A program made the translations under genes and the position numbers. A stretch of 32,457 bases of DNA, from the UHGV virus genome UHGV-0096747; one strand, given 5' to 3'. Under the pieces are notes generated by a model. That model saw only the letters and a list, made by a program, of their open reading frames with translations, was not told the DNA's origin and did no database searches. The DNA is from a virus. Shown piece by piece: positions 6,876 to 28,870 of the stretch (position 1 is its first letter; the number at the start of each line of letters is the position of its first letter).

Positions 6876-7052
6876 CCGTTTAACTCCGTGGTTAATGGGT
6901 GCAACTATTTTCTGTTGGGCAGTGCATGAGACGCTATTTGACCTGGCTGGTCAGTGGATGAAACAACAGATAAAGAAAAGGCGGGCAATCAGCTTGCCTG
7001 CCTTGATTTGTACTCTCTCTGTTTCCAACTGACAAATTACGTAACCAAAATT

Positions 7053-7068
7053 CTGTCAAATCTGACAG
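7053..7068. terminator. Possible weak bidirectional terminator hairpin between the cargo gene and FI
   Basis: CTGTCA-AATC-TGACAG perfect 6-bp dyad flanked by 4-T runs on both strands, 68 nt downstream of the 7136..7828 ORF. Confidence 0.3.
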
Positions 7069-7135
7069 CCTGTTTTGAGCGAAGAGCGGACCTGAGATTG
7101 TGGTATGCTAATTTATGGGGAGCAGGTCAATTGTA

Positions 7136-7828
7136 TTAGTTATCTTTTTGCTTTTCTTTATCCCATTTCTTTGCAGTGGTCTGATACCACTCTTCACGTG
7201 CTCGTTGTTCCTCGGCTCTGTCACTTGAATTATAGTTGTCTGTTTTAATTTTTTTGCTTCCCTGGGAAATCGGCCTCCAGTCTTCTCTAATCTTTTTCAT
7301 CTGCTCAGCTATCTGTGTCATTGGACTCCTTGCACCTAAGTAGCTAACCCCCTCGAAAGAAGCCATATCATAAGAATACTCATTCCGCTCTCTTTCAGTT
7401 GAGCCCGGCTGTTTAGACCAGCTAATACTAACAGAATAAACTTGATCTTTAATCTGGTCATACTTACAAAGACTGCTGTTAAGGGAATGGCCGTTTTTCA
7501 ATACGCTAACCTTGCTAAATGGTATACCTTCATTTTTTCTATGTTCTGCATTAACCAGTGGGGGATTAAATCCGACTTCAATATCATAGGCTGGGGCATT
7601 TCCGGTATTAGCAATATTGATATCAAAATAAAAAGCAGCCCAAGAATTTGGTTCAAGAGTCACAACGACATGAGGTTGAACTGATGCGTCAACCATCCTT
7701 TTTGTCTCGTCTGCTAATAGCCTTGTTACTCTCCACAAGAAAAATGTAGCAACTGCTGTTAGCAATGCTGCCAAAGCGGAGATAAGTGTACTTACTGTGT
7801 TTATATGCTCTGCGATAAATTCGATCAT
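7136..7828 (-). CDS. Hypothetical single-pass membrane protein, AT-rich cargo at the Z/fun position
   Basis: 230-aa ORF with ATG start and AAGGA Shine-Dalgarno 7 nt upstream; N-terminal hydrophobic helix (VSTLISALAALLTAVATFFLW) then a charged soluble domain; AT-rich unlike the flanking tail genes. Confidence 0.6.
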   Translation of the reverse strand: MIEFIAEHINTVSTLISALAALLTAVATFFLWRVTRLLADETKRMVDASVQPHVVVTLEPNSWAAFYFDINIANTGNAPAYDIEVGFNPPLVNAEHRKNEGIPFSKVSVLKNGHSLNSSLCKYDQIKDQVYSVSISWSKQPGSTERERNEYSYDMASFEGVSYLGARSPMTQIAEQMKKIREDWRPISQGSKKIKTDNYNSSDRAEEQRAREEWYQTTAKKWDKEKQKDN

Positions 7829-8319
7829 GAGTTGTCCTTGGGGGCGTACTAATTGTTTTCAATACTAAAATAGCGCCGGGCTTGAAAAATTGCACACTTA
7901 TGGTTCGATTTACCTCAACAGTTAAGGCTTCAACTTCCCCCATGCACCTCACCCAGCCCAAGACTGTATGAGGTCTGACAAAGAACTTCCTGACACTTGA
8001 AAACGAGGCAACGGCTAGGGTTTCTCGTAGGGCAAGGATTGAATACGAAGCCTGTATATTGCTCCGCGAACGCTGCTGAGGGCAGTTTAAATGTTGGGCG
8101 TTTATGTAGCCTTTCACTCACCAGCATGAGTTCAATGTCTGTGAGTTACCGACAACAATATAAAGGGGGTGGCATCATCATATATCCAAGCTAGAGTCAA
8201 ATCCTATAACTGGTTTTATGATCAGTGTCAATTGTTTGATTATTGAACGTTTACGAAGCAGCACGGGAGCCATATAACTAATGGGCAGGTATAAGCCTGT
8301 ATCACGAGGAATCAGTAAA

Positions 8320-8499
8320 ATGGCTGATGATAAGACCAAAATCGGTACCCCTGACAATGATTTAATAAGTATCAAACAGGATTACGAGAGACGTGATTGG
8401 GCTGAAAAGTTTGGAGTTAGCGAGGCCAAACTTGTTCAAGCCGTACAGGCTGTAGGTCATTCGGCTAAGAAAGTACAGGCATGGCTTAAAGACCATTAA
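8320..8499 (+). CDS. Small hypothetical protein (59 aa), resembles the DUF3606 family
   Basis: Internal ATG at 8320 with GAGGAA Shine-Dalgarno 8 nt upstream (the track ORF starts earlier at 8281); WAEKFGVSEAKLVQAVQAVGHSAKKV matches my memory of the DUF3606 pattern; followed by a terminator. Confidence 0.5.
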   Translation: MADDKTKIGTPDNDLISIKQDYERRDWAEKFGVSEAKLVQAVQAVGHSAKKVQAWLKDH

Positions 8500-8505
8500 T
8501 ATATG

Positions 8506-8528
8506 AGCGCCTTTCTAGGCGCTTTTTT
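8506..8528 (+). terminator. Rho-independent terminator between the two small cargo ORFs
   Basis: AGCGCC-TTTCTA-GGCGCT hairpin followed by TTTTTT. Confidence 0.5.
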
Positions 8529-8551
8529 CTTTGTCCTTTGGGAGATGATTT

Positions 8552-8830
8552 ATGGCTAATAATTTATTTATTACTTACGACCTCATTAAAACGAAAGATT
8601 ATGCGGCTGTGTATGATGCAATTAAATCTTTAGGAAATTGGGCTTTAACAACTGAATCGAACTGGTATGTTAACTGTAGTTACTCTGCCGAGGATGCAGC
8701 CAAAATTGTGAGGGCGGTCATGGATAGTGATGATAAGCTTATTGTTGTAGACGCAACCAATAACTCAGCTTATTGGTACAATCTCTCAGATGAAGTTAGT
8801 AACCAAATTCTGACTGAGTGGAACAAGTAA
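8552..8830 (+). CDS. Small hypothetical protein (92 aa)
   Basis: ATG with GGGAG Shine-Dalgarno upstream; AT-rich; alternating hydrophobic strand-like and helix-like segments (LFITYDL, KLIVVDA, AYWYNL); no family assigned. Confidence 0.5.
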   Translation: MANNLFITYDLIKTKDYAAVYDAIKSLGNWALTTESNWYVNCSYSAEDAAKIVRAVMDSDDKLIVVDATNNSAYWYNLSDEVSNQILTEWNK

Positions 8831-8856
8831 TTAAAGGGGGTGGGTACCCCCTTTAA
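8831..8856. terminator. Perfect 10-bp inverted repeat (TTAAAGGGGG / CCCCCTTTAA), likely bidirectional terminator closing the cargo island
   Basis: Palindrome with 6-nt loop immediately after the stop of the 92-aa ORF. Confidence 0.4.
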
Positions 8857-9049
8857 TTCAGAAACTATCATGATTGAAACATTAAATATACTGGGTTAAT
8901 TCTTTCATCCTTGCTCCCTTGCTATATGTCCTGAAAGCGTCCTTTTTAGCCTTCTGCTCAGTATGTCCGGTAATGGCACAGAGCGGACTGTCAGATTAGG
9001 CTTTACTCTGTGCCATAGATATGTAATCTCACACCAGAGCTTATACAAC

Positions 9050-9580: not shown

Positions 9581-11578
9581 TTATACCTGTGCCACGTTAT
9601 ACCATGTCCCGTTAATGTATTTCTGAACCGGTCTGTAATATACGCCACCAATGTTATCGGCAGAGTTTGAGCCGGTATCCTGAACAATAATGCCGGAATA
9701 TATACACCCGGACGGTGCCTGATGTGTCCATGTCATGCCATTGTTCGCAGGTTTGTATGTGGCAGCACCACCAAGCCGGATATCCCGGACATAGCGGGAA
9801 TCAAAGTTACCGTAATCTGTGGGATTAACACGCCCCGTAATATTTATGGTTTTATTACTTTGAATGCTACCGGAGACAAAGCGCATAACATGGACGTTAT
9901 TAGCATAAACATCCAGATTACCGTCGCCATTTTGTTTAAAGCCCGTGTCATTATCACCCAAAACAATCGAGTTACCGCCAAGAGCACTGGATGTACCGAT
10001 GCCCAGTGCACCATTCAATTGACCTCCAGATAATGATAACGCCCCAACATCAGCAGCAGTCGGTTTAATGTGCGAACTGTAAATTACATATACAGTTCCA
10101 TCTGTCAGGCCTGTTGGTTTATTCGCTGTATAAGTTGGTGATGTATGAATCGTTACGCTGGCGTTACTGGTATAATCCCACTGAATATTAACACCTGTGG
10201 CGTAATTACCTATTTCAACATAAACATCATAGGTATCACCGGATGTATTCACCCATGCAAAATTAGTAAATCCAACCGATGTCCGTCGCCATAACGCACC
10301 AGTAAGACCTTTTGGATTTCCATTCCCCGCACGAAGAACAAGTTCAGATATACCAGCCTGCATAGGGGAGTTAACATTATATCCGGCACCACCAATCAGA
10401 CTTATGTAAACCACGGAACTGGCCTGTGGCATGGTTACAGTTGCCAGCCTGAACCATCCTGTACCACCACTAAAAGACATGGTTGTTGAATTTGTTGCTC
10501 CAATATTGCGCAGGAATAATCTTTTATCAGGAATATCCGCGCCATTTTGATCTTTCTGAAGACGTTTTTCAGCATTGTCATAGGCAGACTTCACCGCTTT
10601 TGGTGTTGCGGCCAGCGTTTCCGAATCACTGTTGGTGGCGCTACTGAGCTGAACAAGCCCTTTTCGCGCTGTGGTGGCATCCTGTGCAGTGTATTTCCCG
10701 TTAGCAAGGTCATACGCGACCTTTACCGCCTTTGGCGTTGCGGCCAGCGTTTCAGAATCGCTGTTGGTGGCGCTACTGAGCTGAACAAGGCCTTTTCGCG
10801 CTGTGGTGGCGTCCTGTGCGGTATATTTCCCGTTAGCAAGGTCATATGCTGCTTTTACCGCTTTTGGTGTTGCAGCGAGCGTTTCAGACGTGCTGTTGGT
10901 GGCACTACTGAGCTGGACAAGGCCTTTTCGTGCTGTGGTGGCGTCCTGTGCGGTATATTTCCCGTTAGCAAGGTCATATGCGGCCTTTACCGCCTTTGGC
11001 GTTGCAGCCAGTGTTTCAGACGTGCTGTTGGTCGCACTGCTTAACTGAGTAAAACCTTTTGCGGTCAGCGAGGCGTCCGGGTGACGTCGTGACTGTTCAT
11101 GTTCTGCAATTTTGTCATCAACGTAATCCTGCGTCGCCATCACCGTTGTGGTGTCAATGGTCAGCGCCACTGAGGTCACACTGCTGACGATGATGACCAT
11201 ACGGCAGGTCTGCGAACGCCCTGAGCCTTCGGCAAGAGCTGGCTTATAACTTTCGGCCATGTTCGCCACAGCAATTAACGTTCCCGCATCATCGTACAGG
11301 CCAAGCTCACGCATCCAGAAACCGCCCACCTCCGGCGGAATAACCAGCTCTGCGATAATATAATTACTGTTTCGTTTGTCCTGGCTGATTTTGTTCAGCG
11401 CATGTCGCCAGACTTCGTGGATAAGCCCGGTCTGTCCGGCATCCGGGACAGGCAATTTACCACCGCCATCCCCGACGGCCATCGTGGTAATGTTGACCTT
11501 CCGCCCTCCCGGTGCGGTTGCCGCTGCCAGCTTTGCTGCACCGGCAGTGGTGATAACGGTTCTGAATTTTGTGCTCAT
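9581..11578 (-). CDS. H: Tail fibre protein
   Basis: 665 aa (P2 gpH is about 669); position between I and G; contains internal tandem repeats. Confidence 0.88.
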   Translation of the reverse strand: MSTKFRTVITTAGAAKLAAATAPGGRKVNITTMAVGDGGGKLPVPDAGQTGLIHEVWRHALNKISQDKRNSNYIIAELVIPPEVGGFWMRELGLYDDAGTLIAVANMAESYKPALAEGSGRSQTCRMVIIVSSVTSVALTIDTTTVMATQDYVDDKIAEHEQSRRHPDASLTAKGFTQLSSATNSTSETLAATPKAVKAAYDLANGKYTAQDATTARKGLVQLSSATNSTSETLAATPKAVKAAYDLANGKYTAQDATTARKGLVQLSSATNSDSETLAATPKAVKVAYDLANGKYTAQDATTARKGLVQLSSATNSDSETLAATPKAVKSAYDNAEKRLQKDQNGADIPDKRLFLRNIGATNSTTMSFSGGTGWFRLATVTMPQASSVVYISLIGGAGYNVNSPMQAGISELVLRAGNGNPKGLTGALWRRTSVGFTNFAWVNTSGDTYDVYVEIGNYATGVNIQWDYTSNASVTIHTSPTYTANKPTGLTDGTVYVIYSSHIKPTAADVGALSLSGGQLNGALGIGTSSALGGNSIVLGDNDTGFKQNGDGNLDVYANNVHVMRFVSGSIQSNKTINITGRVNPTDYGNFDSRYVRDIRLGGAATYKPANNGMTWTHQAPSGCIYSGIIVQDTGSNSADNIGGVYYRPVQKYINGTWYNVAQV
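10565..11059 (-). repeat. About 3.7 tandem copies of a 132-bp (44-aa) unit inside the tail fibre gene
   Basis: Peptide unit KG(F/L)(T/V)QLSSATNS(T/D)SETLAATPKAVK(A/V/S)AYDLANGKYTAQDATTAR repeated; DNA period of 132 bp confirmed by identical strings at 10640 and 10772; boundaries derived from protein positions. Confidence 0.8.
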
Positions 11579-21145: not shown

Positions 21146-21318
21146 TGTCAGGAGTCCTGAATAGTGATTAGAGGAGTCACATGTCGGCATCAGTTTCCCG
21201 ACGATGCGCATCCTCCGCCATCAGTCCCGGATGGCTTATCACTGACACAACAGCACCTTAGCGAATCGCGGGGCGCGACTCAGTAGCCTTGCCGTGTATT
21301 CATCACGGCGAGGTATTC
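21146..21318. promoter_or_regulatory. Divergent late promoter region between O and P
   Basis: 173-bp intergenic gap between divergently transcribed O and P, where P2 has Ogr-dependent late promoters; I could not locate an exact TGT-N12-ACA activator site. Confidence 0.4.
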
Positions 21319-23091
21319 ATGACCATCACCACAGACACCACTCTTTTGCACGACCCGCGTCGTCAGGCGGCGCTGCTGTACTGGCAGGGGTTTTCCGTGC
21401 CGCAGATTGCCGCCATGTTGCAGATGAAACGCCCGACGGTGCAGAGCTGGAAACAGCGCGACGGCTGGGACAGCGTTGCCCCCATCAGCCGTGTCGAAAT
21501 GAGTCTGGAAGCGCGGCTGACCCAGCTCATTATCAAACCGCAGAAAACCGGCGGTGACTTCAAGGAAATTGACCTGCTCGGACGCCAGATTGAACGACTG
21601 GCACGGGTAAACCGCTACAGCCAGACCGGCAACGAGGCAGACCTTAATCCGAACGTCGCTAACCGCAACAAAGGCGGGCGTCGCAAACCGAAAAAGAATT
21701 TTTTCAGTGACGAGGCCATCGAAAAGCTGGAGCAGATTTTCTTTGAGCAGTCTTTCGAATATCAGTTGCACTGGTATCGCGCCGGGCTTGAGCACCGCAT
21801 CCGCGATATCCTGAAATCCCGTCAGATTGGCGCGACGTTTTATTTTTCCCGTGAGGCGCTGCTGCGCGCCCTGAAAACCGGCCATAACCAGATTTTTCTG
21901 TCGGCCAGTAAAACGCAGGCGTATGTGTTCCGCGAATACATCATCGCCTTTGCCCGGCTGGTTGACGTTGACCTGACTGGTGACCCGATTGTCCTGGGCA
22001 ATAACGGCGCAAAACTGATTTTTCTCGGCACCAACTCCAACACCGCACAGAGCCATAACGGCGACCTGTACGTCGACGAGATTTTCTGGATCCCGAATTT
22101 TCAGGTACTGCGTAAGGTGGCATCAGGTATGGCCTCACAGAGTCACCTGCGCTCGACCTATTTCTCCACCCCGTCCACGCTGGCGCACGACGCCTACCCG
22201 TTCTGGTCCGGTGAACTGTTCAACCGGGGACGCGCCAGCGCCGCTGAACGCGTGGAAATCGACGTCAGTCATAACGCCCTTGCCGGTGGGCTTCTCTGTG
22301 CGGACGGACAGTGGCGGCAGATTGTCACCATTGAGGACGCCCTGAAAGGTGGCTGCACACTGTTCGACATTGAGCAGCTCAAACGTGAAAACAGCGCCGA
22401 CGATTTTAAAAACCTGTTCATGTGTGAATTTGTTGACGACAAGGCGTCGGTGTTCCCGTTCGAGGAACTGCAACGCTGCATGGTCGACACGCTGGAAGAA
22501 TGGGAAGACTATGCCCCCTTTGCCGCAAATCCGTTCGGCTCCCGCCCGGTATGGATTGGTTACGACCCGTCACACCGTGGCGACAGCGCCGGATGCGTGG
22601 TGCTGGCACCGCCGGTGGTGGCCGGTGGCAAATTCAGAATACTTGAGCGTCACCAGTGGAAAGGCATGGACTTTGCCACTCAGGCGGAATCCATCCGCAA
22701 ACTCACCGAAAAATACAACGTCGAATACATCGGTATCGATGCCACCGGCCTCGGTGTCGGCGTGTTCCAGCTCGTGCGCTCGTTCTATCCCGCCGCGCGC
22801 GATATCCGCTACACGCCGGAAATGAAAACCGCAATGGTACTCAAGGCAAAAGACGTTATCCGCCGTGGCTGTCTGGAATACGACGTCAGCGCCACCGACA
22901 TCACCAGCTCGTTTATGGCTATCCGCAAGACCATGACCAGCAGCGGACGCAGCGCCACCTATGAGGCCAGCCGCAGCGAGGAAGCCAGCCACGCCGACCT
23001 CGCCTGGGCGACCATGCACGCTCTGTTAAATGAGCCACTCACCGCCGGTATCAGCACCCCGCTGACATCCACCATTCTGGAGTTTTACTGA
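21319..23091 (+). CDS. P: Terminase large subunit (ATPase)
   Basis: 590 aa from the ATG at 21319 with GAGG Shine-Dalgarno, matching P2 gpP; the track ORF begins at an upstream TTG. Confidence 0.9.
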   Translation: MTITTDTTLLHDPRRQAALLYWQGFSVPQIAAMLQMKRPTVQSWKQRDGWDSVAPISRVEMSLEARLTQLIIKPQKTGGDFKEIDLLGRQIERLARVNRYSQTGNEADLNPNVANRNKGGRRKPKKNFFSDEAIEKLEQIFFEQSFEYQLHWYRAGLEHRIRDILKSRQIGATFYFSREALLRALKTGHNQIFLSASKTQAYVFREYIIAFARLVDVDLTGDPIVLGNNGAKLIFLGTNSNTAQSHNGDLYVDEIFWIPNFQVLRKVASGMASQSHLRSTYFSTPSTLAHDAYPFWSGELFNRGRASAAERVEIDVSHNALAGGLLCADGQWRQIVTIEDALKGGCTLFDIEQLKRENSADDFKNLFMCEFVDDKASVFPFEELQRCMVDTLEEWEDYAPFAANPFGSRPVWIGYDPSHRGDSAGCVVLAPPVVAGGKFRILERHQWKGMDFATQAESIRKLTEKYNVEYIGIDATGLGVGVFQLVRSFYPAARDIRYTPEMKTAMVLKAKDVIRRGCLEYDVSATDITSSFMAIRKTMTSSGRSATYEASRSEEASHADLAWATMHALLNEPLTAGISTPLTSTILEFY

Positions 23092-24125
23092 TGAGCAAGA
23101 AAAAAGGGAAAACACCGCAACCTGCGGCAAATAAAATGACCGCCAACGCCCCGAAAATGGAGGCATTCACCTTTGGTGAGCCGGTGCCGGTACTCGACCG
23201 CCGTGACATTCTGGATTATGTCGAGTGCATCAGTAACGGCAGATGGTATGAGCCACCGGTCAGCTTTACCGGTCTGGCAAAAAGCCTGCGTGCTGCCGTG
23301 CATCACAGCTCACCGATTTACGTCAAACGCAATATTCTGGCCTCGACATTTATCCCGCATCCGTGGCTTTCTCAGCAGGATTTCAGCCGCTTTGTGCTGG
23401 ACTTTCTGGTGTTCGGTAATGCGTTTCTGGAAAAGCGTTACAGCACCACCGGTAAGGTCATCAGACTGGAAACCTCACCGGCAAAATATACCCGCCGTGG
23501 TGTGGAAGAGGATGTTTACTGGTGGGTGCCGTCCTTCAACGAGCCGACACCTTTCACGCCCGGCTCCGTGTTTCACCTGCTGGAGCCGGATATTAATCAG
23601 GAGCTGTACGGCCTGCCGGAATATCTCAGCGCCCTTAACTCTGCCTGGCTGAATGAGTCGGCCACGCTGTTCCGCCGCAAGTATTACGAAAACGGCGCTC
23701 ATGCCGGATACATCATGTACGTCACCGATGCCGTGCAGGATCGCAACGATATAGAAATGCTCCGCGAAAACATGGTTAAGTCGAAAGGCCGCAACAACTT
23801 TAAAAATCTGTTCCTCTATGCCCCACAGGGGAAAGCCGACGGCATTAAAATTATCCCGCTCAGTGAAGTCGCAACGAAGGACGATTTTTTTAATATCAAA
23901 AAAGCCAGCGCCGCTGACCTGCTGGACGCGCACCGCATCCCCTTTCAGTTGATGGGCGGCAAGCCGGAGAACGTCGGATCGCTGGGTGATATTGAGAAAG
24001 TGGCAAAGGTCTTTGTCCGCAATGAGCTTATCCCGCTACAGGACAGGATCCGCGAGATAAACGGCTGGCTCGGTCAGGAGGTCATCCGCTTTAAAAACTA
24101 CTCACTGGACACTGACAACGGCTGA
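23091..24125 (+). CDS. Q: Portal protein
   Basis: 344 aa as in P2 gpQ; start overlaps the P stop. Confidence 0.9.
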   Translation: MSKKKGKTPQPAANKMTANAPKMEAFTFGEPVPVLDRRDILDYVECISNGRWYEPPVSFTGLAKSLRAAVHHSSPIYVKRNILASTFIPHPWLSQQDFSRFVLDFLVFGNAFLEKRYSTTGKVIRLETSPAKYTRRGVEEDVYWWVPSFNEPTPFTPGSVFHLLEPDINQELYGLPEYLSALNSAWLNESATLFRRKYYENGAHAGYIMYVTDAVQDRNDIEMLRENMVKSKGRNNFKNLFLYAPQGKADGIKIIPLSEVATKDDFFNIKKASAADLLDAHRIPFQLMGGKPENVGSLGDIEKVAKVFVRNELIPLQDRIREINGWLGQEVIRFKNYSLDTDNG

Positions 24126-24130
24126 ACATC

Positions 24131-24152
24131 GCCGCCTGCGGGCGGCTTTTTT
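24131..24152 (+). terminator. Rho-independent terminator after Q
   Basis: GCCGCC-TGCG-GGCGGC hairpin followed by TTTTTT, 6 nt after the Q stop. Confidence 0.6.
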
Positions 24153-24217
24153 ACACCCCGCCATCACGACGCGCTCAGACGCTGAAAAAATAAAATCAGC
24201 ACCACCGCCAGCGCGCA

Positions 24218-24236
24218 GTGCTTTCCCCGCCTCGCC
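24218..24236. other. cos: cos site (19-nt cohesive-end sequence)
   Basis: Reverse complement GGCGAGGCGGGGAAAGCAC matches my recollection of the P2 cohesive end; it sits just beyond Q as in P2. Confidence 0.6.
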
Positions 24237-24368
24237 CGCCCGCTTCATGGGGCGGTTTTAATGCAGGTGCATGATATCTGCCGTAGCCAGTCAGGGCAGG
24301 CTGATTTTAGCCAAAATAATTCGTAAAACCTCATGCATTTTCATGCACCAAACTCATGCATGGCTATC

Positions 24369-24698
24369 TTAAAACTTGATGGTATTTAATAAAACGCGAA
24401 AAGCCACACACTTTGTAGAAATAGCAGAAACCTTTGCCTTATCCTGCTTCCTTGCCTGAGACTCAAAATCATCACCTGTTATAATATCAAAAAGTTCGTC
24501 ATGAAAAACCCTTAACTGAGCTTCAATATCCTTTCTTTTCCATCGCGACTCTTGCTGAACATATATTGTTATAGTCGAATTTATTATATTTAAACTCGCC
24601 TTAATTCTCATTTCCTCTTCTAAGAGAGACTTCGCCGACTTTTTTGAATACCCCTTCAACCAATAACTAATAGCATCAGAACGCAACTCATTAACCAC
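24369..24698 (-). CDS. Hypothetical protein, fourth ORF of the old/tin-position cargo operon
   Basis: 109-aa ORF with GTG start and GGAGAG Shine-Dalgarno 10-11 nt upstream; AT-rich; overlaps the preceding ORF by 43 nt in another frame. Confidence 0.4.
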   Translation of the reverse strand: MVNELRSDAISYWLKGYSKKSAKSLLEEEMRIKASLNIINSTITIYVQQESRWKRKDIEAQLRVFHDELFDIITGDDFESQARKQDKAKVSAISTKCVAFRVLLNTIKF

Positions 24699-25030
24699 AT
24701 CTGAAATACTCTCCAGGAGTTTGGTTTTAGTCTCCCGTTTAACAACAGAACGCCAATGGACTTTATTATATGCAAATGCGGCAGTGGCCGCAAAATAGTA
24801 CTAATAAGAGCCGTAATAAGTGATGACGATAAAATAGGCGTTTCAGGTGGATGCCGTATTGCATCAACAATATTAGAACTAGCTACTTCAATTATCGTAT
24901 TAATATCCTTAACTGCATGAGTAGCACTCAGGCCTTCTTCATTATCCTTCTTGATAAAAAGCAAACTAGGTGAGAACTCACCAGAACCCTCACCTAAAAT
25001 AAACATCGGATTATTCGACTGTTGGCTCAT
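24656..25030 (-). CDS. Hypothetical protein, third ORF of the cargo operon (C-terminal half may be out of frame)
   Basis: 124-aa ORF with ATG start overlapping the end of the upstream ORF by 20 nt; AT-rich. Confidence 0.4.
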   Translation of the reverse strand: MSQQSNNPMFILGEGSGEFSPSLLFIKKDNEEGLSATHAVKDINTIIEVASSNIVDAIRHPPETPILSSSLITALISTILRPLPHLHIIKSIGVLLLNGRLKPNSWRVFQMWLMSCVLMLLVIG

Positions 25031-25400
25031 ATCGTTTCGAATTAAACTGCGCCTCGTTGATATATTGTTCTATTTTCTTTTTATAGAAATCAAAATCAGG
25101 ATTAGTATATTTAATTTCAATTTTAGACAATAACTCATTGGCATGCATATATCCATATTTTACCATGCCCGCAAAGCCCTCCACCAAAAAAGACGAACCA
25201 TATCCTTCGACATCATCATCGATGACTATCTGCAATTTTTCCCCAGCAGAAAGCAAGCTTAGACGCTTTCTTAAGAAATCTTCTCTAAACCGTTCACCAC
25301 TTGCTGTCCCGTCAGTACGATAGCGGCCTCTGGGAACTTTCGAGAACTCTGAACCAATCTTCAATGTTTTCATGAGGCTAGCAACCAATCTAGTAATCAT
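25011..25400 (-). CDS. Small protein (129 aa), possible STAS-like fold, translationally coupled to the upstream ATPase gene
   Basis: The ATG at 25398..25400 overlaps the upstream TGA (ATGA coupling) and has a GGAG Shine-Dalgarno; the track ORF starts earlier at a TTG. Segment IVIDDDVEGYGSSFLVEGF loosely resembles the STAS core. Confidence 0.5.
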   Translation of the reverse strand: MITRLVASLMKTLKIGSEFSKVPRGRYRTDGTASGERFREDFLRKRLSLLSAGEKLQIVIDDDVEGYGSSFLVEGFAGMVKYGYMHANELLSKIEIKYTNPDFDFYKKKIEQYINEAQFNSKRYEPTVE

Positions 25401-26527
25401 AGCTTTGTACTCCATACTATAAGTGTACCACAAACAGGCAGAGCGAAGCTTACTGATTTTACCTCAGATTTTTTATCATGTTGTGAGTATTTGTAAAGGC
25501 CTTTACCACTCATAATTGAAAGATAACCTTCACCACGTTGCTTTATGAACTCCAACAAGTCCTGCAAGCCTTTACCCCGATCCTCTTCCCCCGTACTAGA
25601 ACGTTTGATTTCAACTGCAGCCTTTAACAATTGTTCATCTCTTTTTCGTTCTGCAAGCGGTAACTTCGAAAGGTAATTTAAAACCTTTTCATGGAGTTTA
25701 GATTCCGGCAAAGACCCAGGAATTGTAATACCTTGATCATAAAACACTACTTTTATTATTCTACTTGAACTATCATATGAAGCAGTTAAATACCATTTTT
25801 TATCATGCTCATGATAACCTTTATTATCTGGATAAGCATGATGAACAACATTTGTAATAGCTTCGGACAAACCACTATATAGGAAAGTCCATTTACCAAG
25901 GTCTTCTCCCACAATACGCTTTATTTCTTTTTTTAAATGCTGAGTTTTTTCATCATCATGTAAATGTCCTTTCATATACTTAACAAAACGGATATTACTT
26001 GGTTCCTTTTCTTTTTCAAGCTCAAAACTATCTTTATTTCTAAATAAGTCAAAAAAACCCAACTCATCAAATTGAGAGAGTATGTTTTTATTCCACGTTT
26101 TCACTTTTGGGCGAATGCGTTGCCTTACCGAATCATCCCATTTTGATAATTCCGCGGTCAATACCAATGCGGCAGATGCAGAAATATATTCAATCTTCGA
26201 AAAGTCAACAAAACAAAGACGGTAACATTGGTTATTAAATATCTTCCGCCCCGTAAGATGCCTAATCGTTTGTATGGCTTGCATTGTACGATGGTAATTA
26301 CTTGAAAAGTTCATCTTTTTAGGTAAAGTAAGGAAAAGGTCTCTATTTTTCCTTATTTCGCAATTTAATCCATCTTTAATTTGCGCATTTATCCAACGAT
26401 TTATTTTTGATGCTTTTGAAATAGGATTAATCTTAGAGCGCCCTGCAGATACAACATCTCTTCCTGTACGATGTAAATAGGATCGTAAAATATCTCTCTC
26501 TCTTTCTCTCTTGGTTATTTTTTTCAT
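25397..26527 (-). CDS. GHKL-family ATPase or kinase-like protein with N-terminal STAS-like segment, first gene of the cargo operon
   Basis: 376 aa; ATG with strong AAGGGGGG Shine-Dalgarno; C-terminal motifs EAITNVVHHA (N-box-like), FYDQGITIPG (G1-like) and DRGKGLQDL (G2-like); N-terminal VDFSKIEYISASAALVL resembles the STAS phospho-site region; AT-rich. Confidence 0.55.
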   Translation of the reverse strand: MKKITKRERERDILRSYLHRTGRDVVSAGRSKINPISKASKINRWINAQIKDGLNCEIRKNRDLFLTLPKKMNFSSNYHRTMQAIQTIRHLTGRKIFNNQCYRLCFVDFSKIEYISASAALVLTAELSKWDDSVRQRIRPKVKTWNKNILSQFDELGFFDLFRNKDSFELEKEKEPSNIRFVKYMKGHLHDDEKTQHLKKEIKRIVGEDLGKWTFLYSGLSEAITNVVHHAYPDNKGYHEHDKKWYLTASYDSSSRIIKVVFYDQGITIPGSLPESKLHEKVLNYLSKLPLAERKRDEQLLKAAVEIKRSSTGEEDRGKGLQDLLEFIKQRGEGYLSIMSGKGLYKYSQHDKKSEVKSVSFALPVCGTLIVWSTKL

Positions 26528-26752: not shown

Positions 26753-28870
26753 TCAGATTGGGCGTTGGCTAGCCCTTCCTTTGAATACCATCAATTCCCG
26801 TGAGTAATCTTTTAATCTCTTCCTAAGAACTGTCATCACCTCAGCATCATTCCAACTAACCACCCCTATATCAATCAAATCCAACACTGCTGCAGCGTGC
26901 TCAGAAGGTGTGGGAGCCGGTAACGAAGTATCACCACCAGTGAGCTTTCCACAGTTATTGACAGGACTCCGAGGCGCGGCGATGCCGCTTTTTAAAGTCA
27001 AAGGCTCAACGACCGGAACTTTCGGCACAATGCGCCAGTCCGTCGTTCTGGTGATATGAATATGACGCGCGCCGAGATGCGGCGCGTAAATGCCGACCAC
27101 TCTCTCGACTTCTTCCTCGTACTCGTTAACGTCATCCGACGGGCTACGGGCGACTCTGACAGTCTGGCAATCACGCGGAACATTTGCCCCACCCTGCGCG
27201 CTGATATACAACGCAAAATCACCACTGTCTGCGGCGGCACGTGCAGCCTCAACGCGTTCGTCAAACTCATCAGCAATGCTGACGCCGCGAGGCAATTTGC
27301 GTAGTTCACGGTAAGCCCCCATTGTCGGCAGGCCAACCGTTTTAAATTGCGGGATGCGCCACGTTGACGCCCATGCGGTAACAGCCGCAGCAGTATCTTT
27401 CAGCGGCCTGCCGGTATCGTTATCGAGCTGACCATCCAGTGCATAGCCATCGATGTTTTTTGAGATGTATTTCGCGATATACCCCGCAGCACCGCCCCGG
27501 TTAAGATGTTTTGCCTGAAAACGGTTTCGCGCGGCTCCTCTTTCGTCGCCATCCTCTTTGAGCGCATAGCGACGCATGATTTCGATAATCTGGTTACGCT
27601 GGCGTGGATTACAAAAAAGCATCATATGCCAGTGCGGCGTTCCGTCGTGGTGTGGCTCGACGACTCGCAAACCGTAGACCTGTAAATCATTATCCTTGAA
27701 TGCCGTGCGCATCAGGCTCCAGATACGACAGAGATAACGCTGCGCATCCTTTGGATTAAATGCCTCATCGTTCCAGCCGTGATTAAGCTGAACGGTTTTA
27801 CTTTCGCCTTTTCTGACCTGACGAGTCGGGTGATACTTTGACGGCGCGGTCAGCGTGATAAACATCCCCACATCACCCTCTGCGGCGGCGTAACGCTCAA
27901 TACCGGCAATGGTGTTCATCAGCTCCATCCGGCGAATTTCAGGATTAGAAATACTGCCCATCACCTTACTGATAAGGTCGATGCGCTCGCCGGTTTCCCT
28001 GTTTTCAAGGTCACACGATTTAAGAAATTCCAGATTTGCCTGGCGGCGCGCACGCACATCACGAATGGCGTGTTTACTGGCATAAGGAGAACGGTCTTTA
28101 TTGACCTCCCCGACAGCTATCAGTAACGCTTCATGCCAGCGCATACGCTGGCCTTTAAGCTGATGAGTCCACCACTCATCGTTAAACAGACGGGCAATGG
28201 CAGAATATGCCTGCCTCGTGGTCATCTGCCCTTTACGGTATTTTTTCCAGTAGAGAGGGGAAATATTGAAAGCACGTGCAGCGCCAGCAACATGACCATA
28301 GAGGTGAGCCTGCGCCTCATCCGTAAACAGCGATTCTTTTTCGCCATGCGCATCCACCCAGGCATCGCTGAGTTCCTCATACATCATGAAAAGCTGCGAT
28401 GAGATACGGGCAGCAAACTTTTTCAGCTCCTTGTCATTCATTCCCGGCAGGCGCGCATAGTGGTCACGCTCTGCCAGAAACAGTAACGACGCGTCGGTGT
28501 TCATTTCATGGCGCTGATTCACACGCTCAATGCGCGGCCATAAACGACGCTGAAAAGTGGATGTGAGGAAATAAAACCCGTGTACCGGGCTTTTATTGCG
28601 CCGGATGTAGTCATAGCGTGAAGTAAACAGCGAGCGCAAAAAGTAAGGCAGGCGGTTAATCGTGGATAAAACACCTTGCACCTGACGCATCTCGTCACGT
28701 GTAAGGGGTCTTTCGCGCCCGACGGCCTCGCGTGGCGCGTTCCATGCATAAGCACCGGTAAACGCCTTACCGGTGCCTGCAGCAAATGCTGAAGGAGGGA
28801 CAAAACGCCCGGAGGCTTTAACGGCCATATGAGCCAAAAGCCTCTGAACAACGCCTGCTGAGTTGCTCAA
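26753..28870 (-). CDS. A: Replication initiation protein A (rolling-circle nickase)
   Basis: About 700 aa in the P2 A position upstream of the old/tin island; HUH-like GTPHWHMML and tyrosine motif YIAKYISK. The track start is a TTG; an in-frame ATG at 28828 is an alternative. Confidence 0.85.
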   Translation of the reverse strand: MSNSAGVVQRLLAHMAVKASGRFVPPSAFAAGTGKAFTGAYAWNAPREAVGRERPLTRDEMRQVQGVLSTINRLPYFLRSLFTSRYDYIRRNKSPVHGFYFLTSTFQRRLWPRIERVNQRHEMNTDASLLFLAERDHYARLPGMNDKELKKFAARISSQLFMMYEELSDAWVDAHGEKESLFTDEAQAHLYGHVAGAARAFNISPLYWKKYRKGQMTTRQAYSAIARLFNDEWWTHQLKGQRMRWHEALLIAVGEVNKDRSPYASKHAIRDVRARRQANLEFLKSCDLENRETGERIDLISKVMGSISNPEIRRMELMNTIAGIERYAAAEGDVGMFITLTAPSKYHPTRQVRKGESKTVQLNHGWNDEAFNPKDAQRYLCRIWSLMRTAFKDNDLQVYGLRVVEPHHDGTPHWHMMLFCNPRQRNQIIEIMRRYALKEDGDERGAARNRFQAKHLNRGGAAGYIAKYISKNIDGYALDGQLDNDTGRPLKDTAAAVTAWASTWRIPQFKTVGLPTMGAYRELRKLPRGVSIADEFDERVEAARAAADSGDFALYISAQGGANVPRDCQTVRVARSPSDDVNEYEEEVERVVGIYAPHLGARHIHITRTTDWRIVPKVPVVEPLTLKSGIAAPRSPVNNCGKLTGGDTSLPAPTPSEHAAAVLDLIDIGVVSWNDAEVMTVLRKRLKDYSRELMVFKGRASQRPI

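Follow-up and report, generated by a model that had tools for sequence, protein, structure and literature searches.

Two overlapping open reading frames on the minus strand of the virus genome UHGV-0096747 are very probably the two parts of one 220-codon gene that was disrupted when a G was lost from codon 80. Throughout this text the window denotes the whole analysed stretch of 32,457 nucleotides, and positions are counted from its first letter. The broken gene stands last in a conserved, translationally coupled three-gene operon (K, S and the third gene), an uncharacterised cargo of a P2-like prophage, to which we refer as the cassette. The overlap is an ordinary pseudogene (or an assembly error) and neither an overlapping gene pair nor a programmed frameshift; taken by itself it is biologically unremarkable, and the surrounding cassette is the more interesting lead.

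A single gene split by a one-base deletion

The ORF listing gives the two frames as 24369..24698 (109 aa, GTG start) and 24656..25030 (124 aa, ATG start), and it bears out the initial annotation, according to which they share 43 nt (24656..24698) in different frames. The same annotation had described the frame of the 109-aa ORF as open for 33 codons upstream of its start, as far as a stop at 24801..24803; in the minus-strand translation of 24369-24803 the TAG is found at this very place, and the open stretch counts 34 codons (24699..24800). As the first of its alternatives it had considered that an indel disrupts one gene of about 215 aa, and this is what near-identical loci and all homologues support, with an actual length of 220 codons (24369..25030, minus strand).

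Positions 24300-25100 of the window were searched by megablast against 5426 complete E. coli genomes. The locus was present in 15 of them at 98.5-99.9% identity, and all 15 span 802 nt, as against 801 in the window. With strain 203740 (L001) the window differs by exactly one gap, the identity being otherwise 100% over 801 nt; the intact cassette of this strain lies at NZ_CP025913 2859324-2861483. In the alignment of the deletion region of the window with this locus and with that of OkiPb01716 (L002), the coding strand reads ATTTTGCGG in the window and ATTTGTGCGG, with the extra G, in the relatives. The alignment, a gap map against the strain 203740 prophage (L004) and an exact-string check place the missing coding-strand G (C on the plus strand) between 24792 and 24793, where it is the second base of the Cys80 codon (TGT), numbering from the ATG at 25030. 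The indel had been expected within 24800..24840, and its actual site lies 8 nt outside of this interval.

Alignment with intact homologues, proposed at the outset as a check, revealed a single continuous ORF in the relatives. At the 15 E. coli loci with the extra base a single CDS is annotated, for an uninterrupted protein of either 212 or 220 aa, and RefSeq carries one 212-aa CDS at the locus both in strain 203740 and in OkiPb01716, with an uninterrupted intact translation. Exact-string comparison showed the intact allele at 14 loci, and the deleted one in the window only; in 10 further loci, whose K protein is identical to that of the window, the third gene was intact every time (10/10, 220 or 212 aa). 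A pattern scan permitting either allele returned one intact copy from IMG/VR and none from GTDB representatives, and the deleted allele from neither. The initial annotation had named homologues that keep two overlapping ORFs as the observation which would speak against a single gene; the opposite was seen, so the single-gene reading stands.

Loss of one base accounts for both ORFs. Residues 1-79 of the 124-aa product of the 5' fragment (24656..25030, minus strand) align perfectly with homologues and residues 80-124 with none, and thus the C-terminal part of this product, suspected from the beginning to be read out of frame, consists of 45 out-of-frame codons. The 3' part of the gene (24369..24800, minus strand) follows in the -1 frame and contains native residues 81-220. 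Of these, the open stretch 5' of the GTG represents residues 81-111, and the 109-aa ORF represents residues 112-220, its GTG at 24698 being the internal Val112 codon of the intact protein and the earliest start available in this frame. The 43-nt overlap is therefore a by-product of the frame shift which the deletion brought about.

A search with the intact protein gave 28 homologue clusters with 52-100% identity in eight genera, represented by E. coli, Klebsiella, Raoultella, Citrobacter, Enterobacter, Yersinia, Cronobacter and Erwinia. Nearly all homologues are 209-233 aa long, mostly 220 aa, and among the three shorter ones (153-155 aa) at least one is a contig-end partial. Their most conserved block, SSSLITALISTxCAATAAFxYNKxHW, crosses the break site, and the deletion hits the invariant Cys80 within the sole predicted transmembrane helix of the protein. 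When 1.84 billion cluster representatives were searched with a profile, the family grew to 235 members, 146 of them at E <= 1e-10; the best 150 of the 235 have 138-279 aa and are nearly all matched in one stretch, typically at profile positions of about 70-218. An intact member of the family would be expected to have one ORF of about 150-280 aa, uninterrupted through the conserved block at codon 80. Homologues in which the codon-80 region is present are all continuous across it, whereas the window copy is split by the loss of one nucleotide and so is a disrupted member of the family.

The N-terminus MxQLSNN is conserved in other genera and the second Met is not, which makes the ATG at 25030, giving 220 aa, a likelier start than the second ATG preferred by PGAP. 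It is this second ATG that RefSeq/PGAP uses for the 212-aa version of the intact gene (window 25006..25030, minus strand; L001:3095).

The third protein matched no family in Pfam, PADLOC, NCBIfam, PHROGs or PDB, and its fragments matched none in Pfam, PADLOC or NCBIfam. The AF2 model of the protein (pLDDT 71, good from residue 100 on) consists of a disordered N-terminus, a long helix (69-126) and a four-helix bundle. The sole hydrophobic segment falls at about residues 66-88, at the start of the long helix, with a KD19 maximum of 1.78, and the transmembrane helix is predicted from this hydropathy alone. A strongly basic stretch after the hydrophobic segment suggests that the bundle is probably cytoplasmic. 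Foldseek comparison of the model with the PDB returned generic four-helix and helical bundles, none at E <= 1e-3, and no meaningful match came from searching PDB sequences with K, with S or with the profile of the third protein.

Recoding, gene overlap and assembly error

The sequence as it stands could still yield a full-length protein if the ribosome slipped back by one base in the overlap, as in programmed -1 frameshifting, which was among the alternatives raised by the initial annotation. The downstream frame does lie at -1 and is open for 34 codons 5' of the GTG, so that slippage at any point of 24656-24800 would yield a nearly native protein. A scan of this productive shift window, however, found no slippery heptamer of the zero-frame form X_XXY_YYZ and no homopolymer of at least five; relatives, even at loci 99.9% identical, encode the protein in one frame and require no shift; and the slip would be needed exactly at the deletion to restore the invariant segment, with Cys80 lost even so. 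We regard the chance of such recoding as practically negligible. It is also very improbable that we deal with two real, separately translated genes, the second of which starts from the GTG. A GGAGAG Shine-Dalgarno, pointed out earlier as the start's own, is indeed found at 24714..24709 (minus strand), 10 nt 5' of the GTG, and each ORF is longer than 100 codons. The same GGAGAG-N10-GTG is, however, present unchanged within the intact genes, where it codes for the conserved LESISDV, and the overlapping arrangement is absent from every homologous locus examined; the 45 C-terminal residues of the 124-aa product represent an out-of-frame reading that is not conserved, and a large assembly collection holds no other record of this exact product.

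An artefact of sequencing or assembly, in which the strain has an intact gene and the consensus dropped one base, is a serious possibility, though not the one we favour. Among all the loci examined the deletion occurs in the window sequence only, the other positions of the 801 nt do not differ from strain 203740, and the coding-strand T3 run becomes T4, a context in which long-read consensus errors may arise. Against this, the base lost is a G flanked by T, so no pre-existing homopolymer changed its length, and the deletion is the sole uncompensated coding indel over the roughly 23 kb that align at about 98% with the strain 203740 prophage (L004). As, besides, all the large P2 genes are intact ORFs, the assembly is not error-prone in general. 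According to a report on P2/P4 hotspot loci (PMC13586616), pseudogenes are common there, chiefly among genes of unknown function, and rare among recognised defence genes; a dead third gene agrees with this pattern. Since no pre-existing homopolymer was shortened and no further uncompensated coding indel occurs in these 23 kb, we lean, with modest confidence, to a true mutation rather than an assembly error. Should it nevertheless be an error of assembly, the third gene would simply be intact and still a single gene. For annotation purposes the two ORFs are to be merged and flagged as one frameshifted gene, and not as a case of recoding or of overlapping genes.

The cassette and its place in the prophage

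The first gene of the cassette, K (25397..26527, minus strand), encodes a protein of 376 aa in which a STAS domain is joined to a GHKL kinase domain of the SpoIIAB/RsbW-like fold; 20 of its 25 homologues match Pfam HATPase_c_2 weakly. The second gene, S (25011..25400, minus strand), encodes a protein of 129 aa assigned to DUF4325, a STAS-like family, by its Pfam match (E 3.8e-5, 23.8 bits, just above the cut-off of 23), by the PGAP annotation of relatives and by an invariant Ser. DUF4325 is the only match that S has, and no wHTH domain was detected in it. The stop of K and the start of S overlap in ATGA, and the end of S overlaps the third gene by 20 nt. In PHROGs both K and S fall into families of unknown function only, and NCBIfam recognises none of the three proteins of the cassette.

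The window is a P2-like prophage, with the terminase and portal Q genes at 21289..24125 on the plus strand. The cassette is located between the P2-type portal gene Q (23091..24125, plus strand) and the P2-type replication endonuclease gene A (26753..28828, minus strand, 691 codons), which are the boundaries of the cos-proximal gpA-gpQ hotspot. P2 itself has old/tin in this slot, and in other P2-like phages many anti-phage systems are found there (Rousset et al. 2022, PMC9122126). Although it shares the slot, the cassette has no relation to old, tin or PARIS, and the systems tested in that study do not include it; its K, S and third-protein sequences are absent from the supplementary files, including Table S2, where the evaluated systems are given. 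The exact arrangement of a hypothetical protein, a DUF4325 protein and another hypothetical protein (WP_126123320, WP_032254618 and WP_126646822) does appear in Table S5 of the same paper. Five proteins, K, S and the third protein included, were run against PADLOC v2, and none had a match at E <= 0.01. We also considered whether the cassette could be the three-gene 'no clear domain' anti-P1 system of Rousset 2022; with no PADLOC match and no sequence match in the supplement, this identity found no support.

The order of K, S and the third gene is kept in P2-like prophages of Erwinia billingiae and Serratia marcescens, in a non-P2 island of Yersinia enterocolitica (L007, L008), and in the betaproteobacterium Methylotenera sp. 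(L009). In Yersinia the neighbours of the cassette are deaminase-toxin genes, a gene for an LPD-domain protein of very large size and, at one locus out of two, a TIR-domain gene; in Methylotenera it stands beside DNA methylase, ParB-like and integrase genes, and the third protein there is a clear homologue (hhalign 97.5%, E 8e-12). Its presence in these two hosts outside P2 prophages indicates that the cassette moves independently of P2. Among 50,697 deposited phage genomes none has the cargo, and the only matches are to the P2 flank (24130-24274).

Several further features of the prophage deserve mention. Gene A has 691 codons both in the window and in every cassette-bearing relative, and PGAP flags it as 'incomplete, missing C-terminus'. 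Its alignment with the 758-aa gpA of Erwinia ends at about residue 645, so that the recombination boundary of the hotspot seems to lie within the 3' end of the gene. The cos-proximal intergenic region (24126..24368) contains two strong terminator-like GC hairpins on the plus strand, 24131..24146 and 24236..24255, and its homology to P2-type phages is limited to 24130..24274. A second P2 variable region extends over 7050..8960, between the tail-fibre assembly and tail-sheath genes, and its cargo is absent from the 98%-identical prophage of strain 203740. It includes an ORF of 230 aa (7136..7828, minus strand), hydrophobic in a segment near its N-terminus, and two small plus-strand ORFs (8281..8499 and 8552..8830). 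The ORF at 7689..8117, which overlaps the 230-aa ORF, looks non-coding, and the pair was rejected as a second case of frameshift. In the prophage of strain 203740 an ISVsa5 (IS4-like) insertion splits the tail-fibre gene (L004:33019..34227), and the copy in the window (9581..11578) is intact.

Likeness to kinase-STAS systems and a proposed function

[quoted passage not shown] In the model put forward for it, partly shown and partly inferred, DNA damage activates VapK, Ser48 of VapS becomes phosphorylated, and VapC is released; the vapKSC operon protects E. coli against phage Bas42 (PMC13373217). That the kinase is activated by ssDNA also belongs to the features of VapKSC. In the cassette, too, the first gene encodes a STAS protein with a GHKL (anti-sigma-factor-like) kinase domain, the second product belongs to DUF4325 together with VapS, and the gene order is alike. 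The VapK and VapS sequences used here were taken from the deposited AF3 model of PMC13373217. VapS is a strong member of Pfam DUF4325 (2.7e-17), and the invariant Ser of S proteins, within GYGSSFL, aligns with VapS Ser48. The profile of the K family matches the VapK kinase domain at an hhalign E of 2.4e-5 (probability 76%). In direct BLASTP comparison the similarity of K to VapK is marginal (E 0.026), and that of S to VapS falls short of significance (E 0.16); as these matches were too weak to be used alone, profile and structure comparisons were necessary.

There are also clear differences from VapKSC. The third gene of the cassette is no VapC and encodes no PIN nuclease; its product, about 220 aa long, is helical, is predicted to have one transmembrane helix and matches no family. 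K has 376 aa and an extra N-terminal helical region, as compared with 302 aa in VapK; the sequence similarity of K and S to VapK and VapS is marginal. Lacking a PIN nuclease as its third gene, it is VapKSC-like and not a member of VapKSC: a VapK/VapS-like kinase-STAS switch that is reused with a different membrane protein.

Other kinase-STAS pairs also invite comparison. In CapK/CapS, transcriptional controllers of immune operons, a STAS-containing GHKL kinase phosphorylates a STAS-wHTH repressor (PMC13373217), and the cassette resembles this pair in having such a kinase with a presumed STAS substrate encoded immediately downstream. CapK has, however, an N-terminal HTH, and CapS a DNA-binding C-terminal winged HTH; no winged HTH was detected in the 129-aa S protein, whose size and layout resemble those of the 116-aa VapS; moreover, S precedes one small gene here and not an immune operon. 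From SpoIIAB-SpoIIAA and RsbW-RsbV the cassette differs by having no sigma factor target, by the own STAS domain of K, and by its setting, which is phage cargo and not a stress or sporulation regulon. Tables S1/S5 of PMC9122126 list 'HATPase_c | DUF4325' with 9 occurrences in P4 and 'hypothetical + hypothetical + DUF4325 + DinI' in P2, and the 'hypothetical + hypothetical + PIN_12 + DinI' entries of the same paper might be vapKSC. Taken together, these recurrent arrangements give a hint that kinase-STAS modules may form a family in which the third gene is exchangeable.

By analogy with these systems, it would be logical to suggest a signalling route from the kinase to the STAS protein and further to an effector, with effector toxicity and an anti-phage function of the whole. 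S would keep the membrane protein inactive via its cytoplasmic bundle; K would sense infection or DNA damage and phosphorylate the conserved Ser of S; once S is phosphorylated, the third protein, which passes the membrane once and has a four-helix bundle, would be set free or activated, and it may then act as the effector that arrests or kills the cell. In the genome of the window the deletion cuts the gene in the middle of the transmembrane helix. Most likely, therefore, the presumed effector does not function, nor does the cassette as a whole; the cassette here is probably dead, with K and S still intact.

We may tentatively suggest, as a plausible proposal and not as a settled view, that the intact cassette is an undescribed anti-phage system of the abortive-infection type, in which a VapK/VapS-like switch would govern single-pass membrane effectors of a new family in place of a PIN nuclease. 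On this view the frameshifted copy in the window would amount to a natural knock-out of the toxic effector and to a rare instance of a decaying defence system in a P2 hotspot. If the cassette is a defence system, its broken copy is a ready-made negative control, with the effector lost in loci where pseudogenes of defence genes are reported to be rare, and the kinase-STAS switch would have to be seen as a modular controller for varied effectors.
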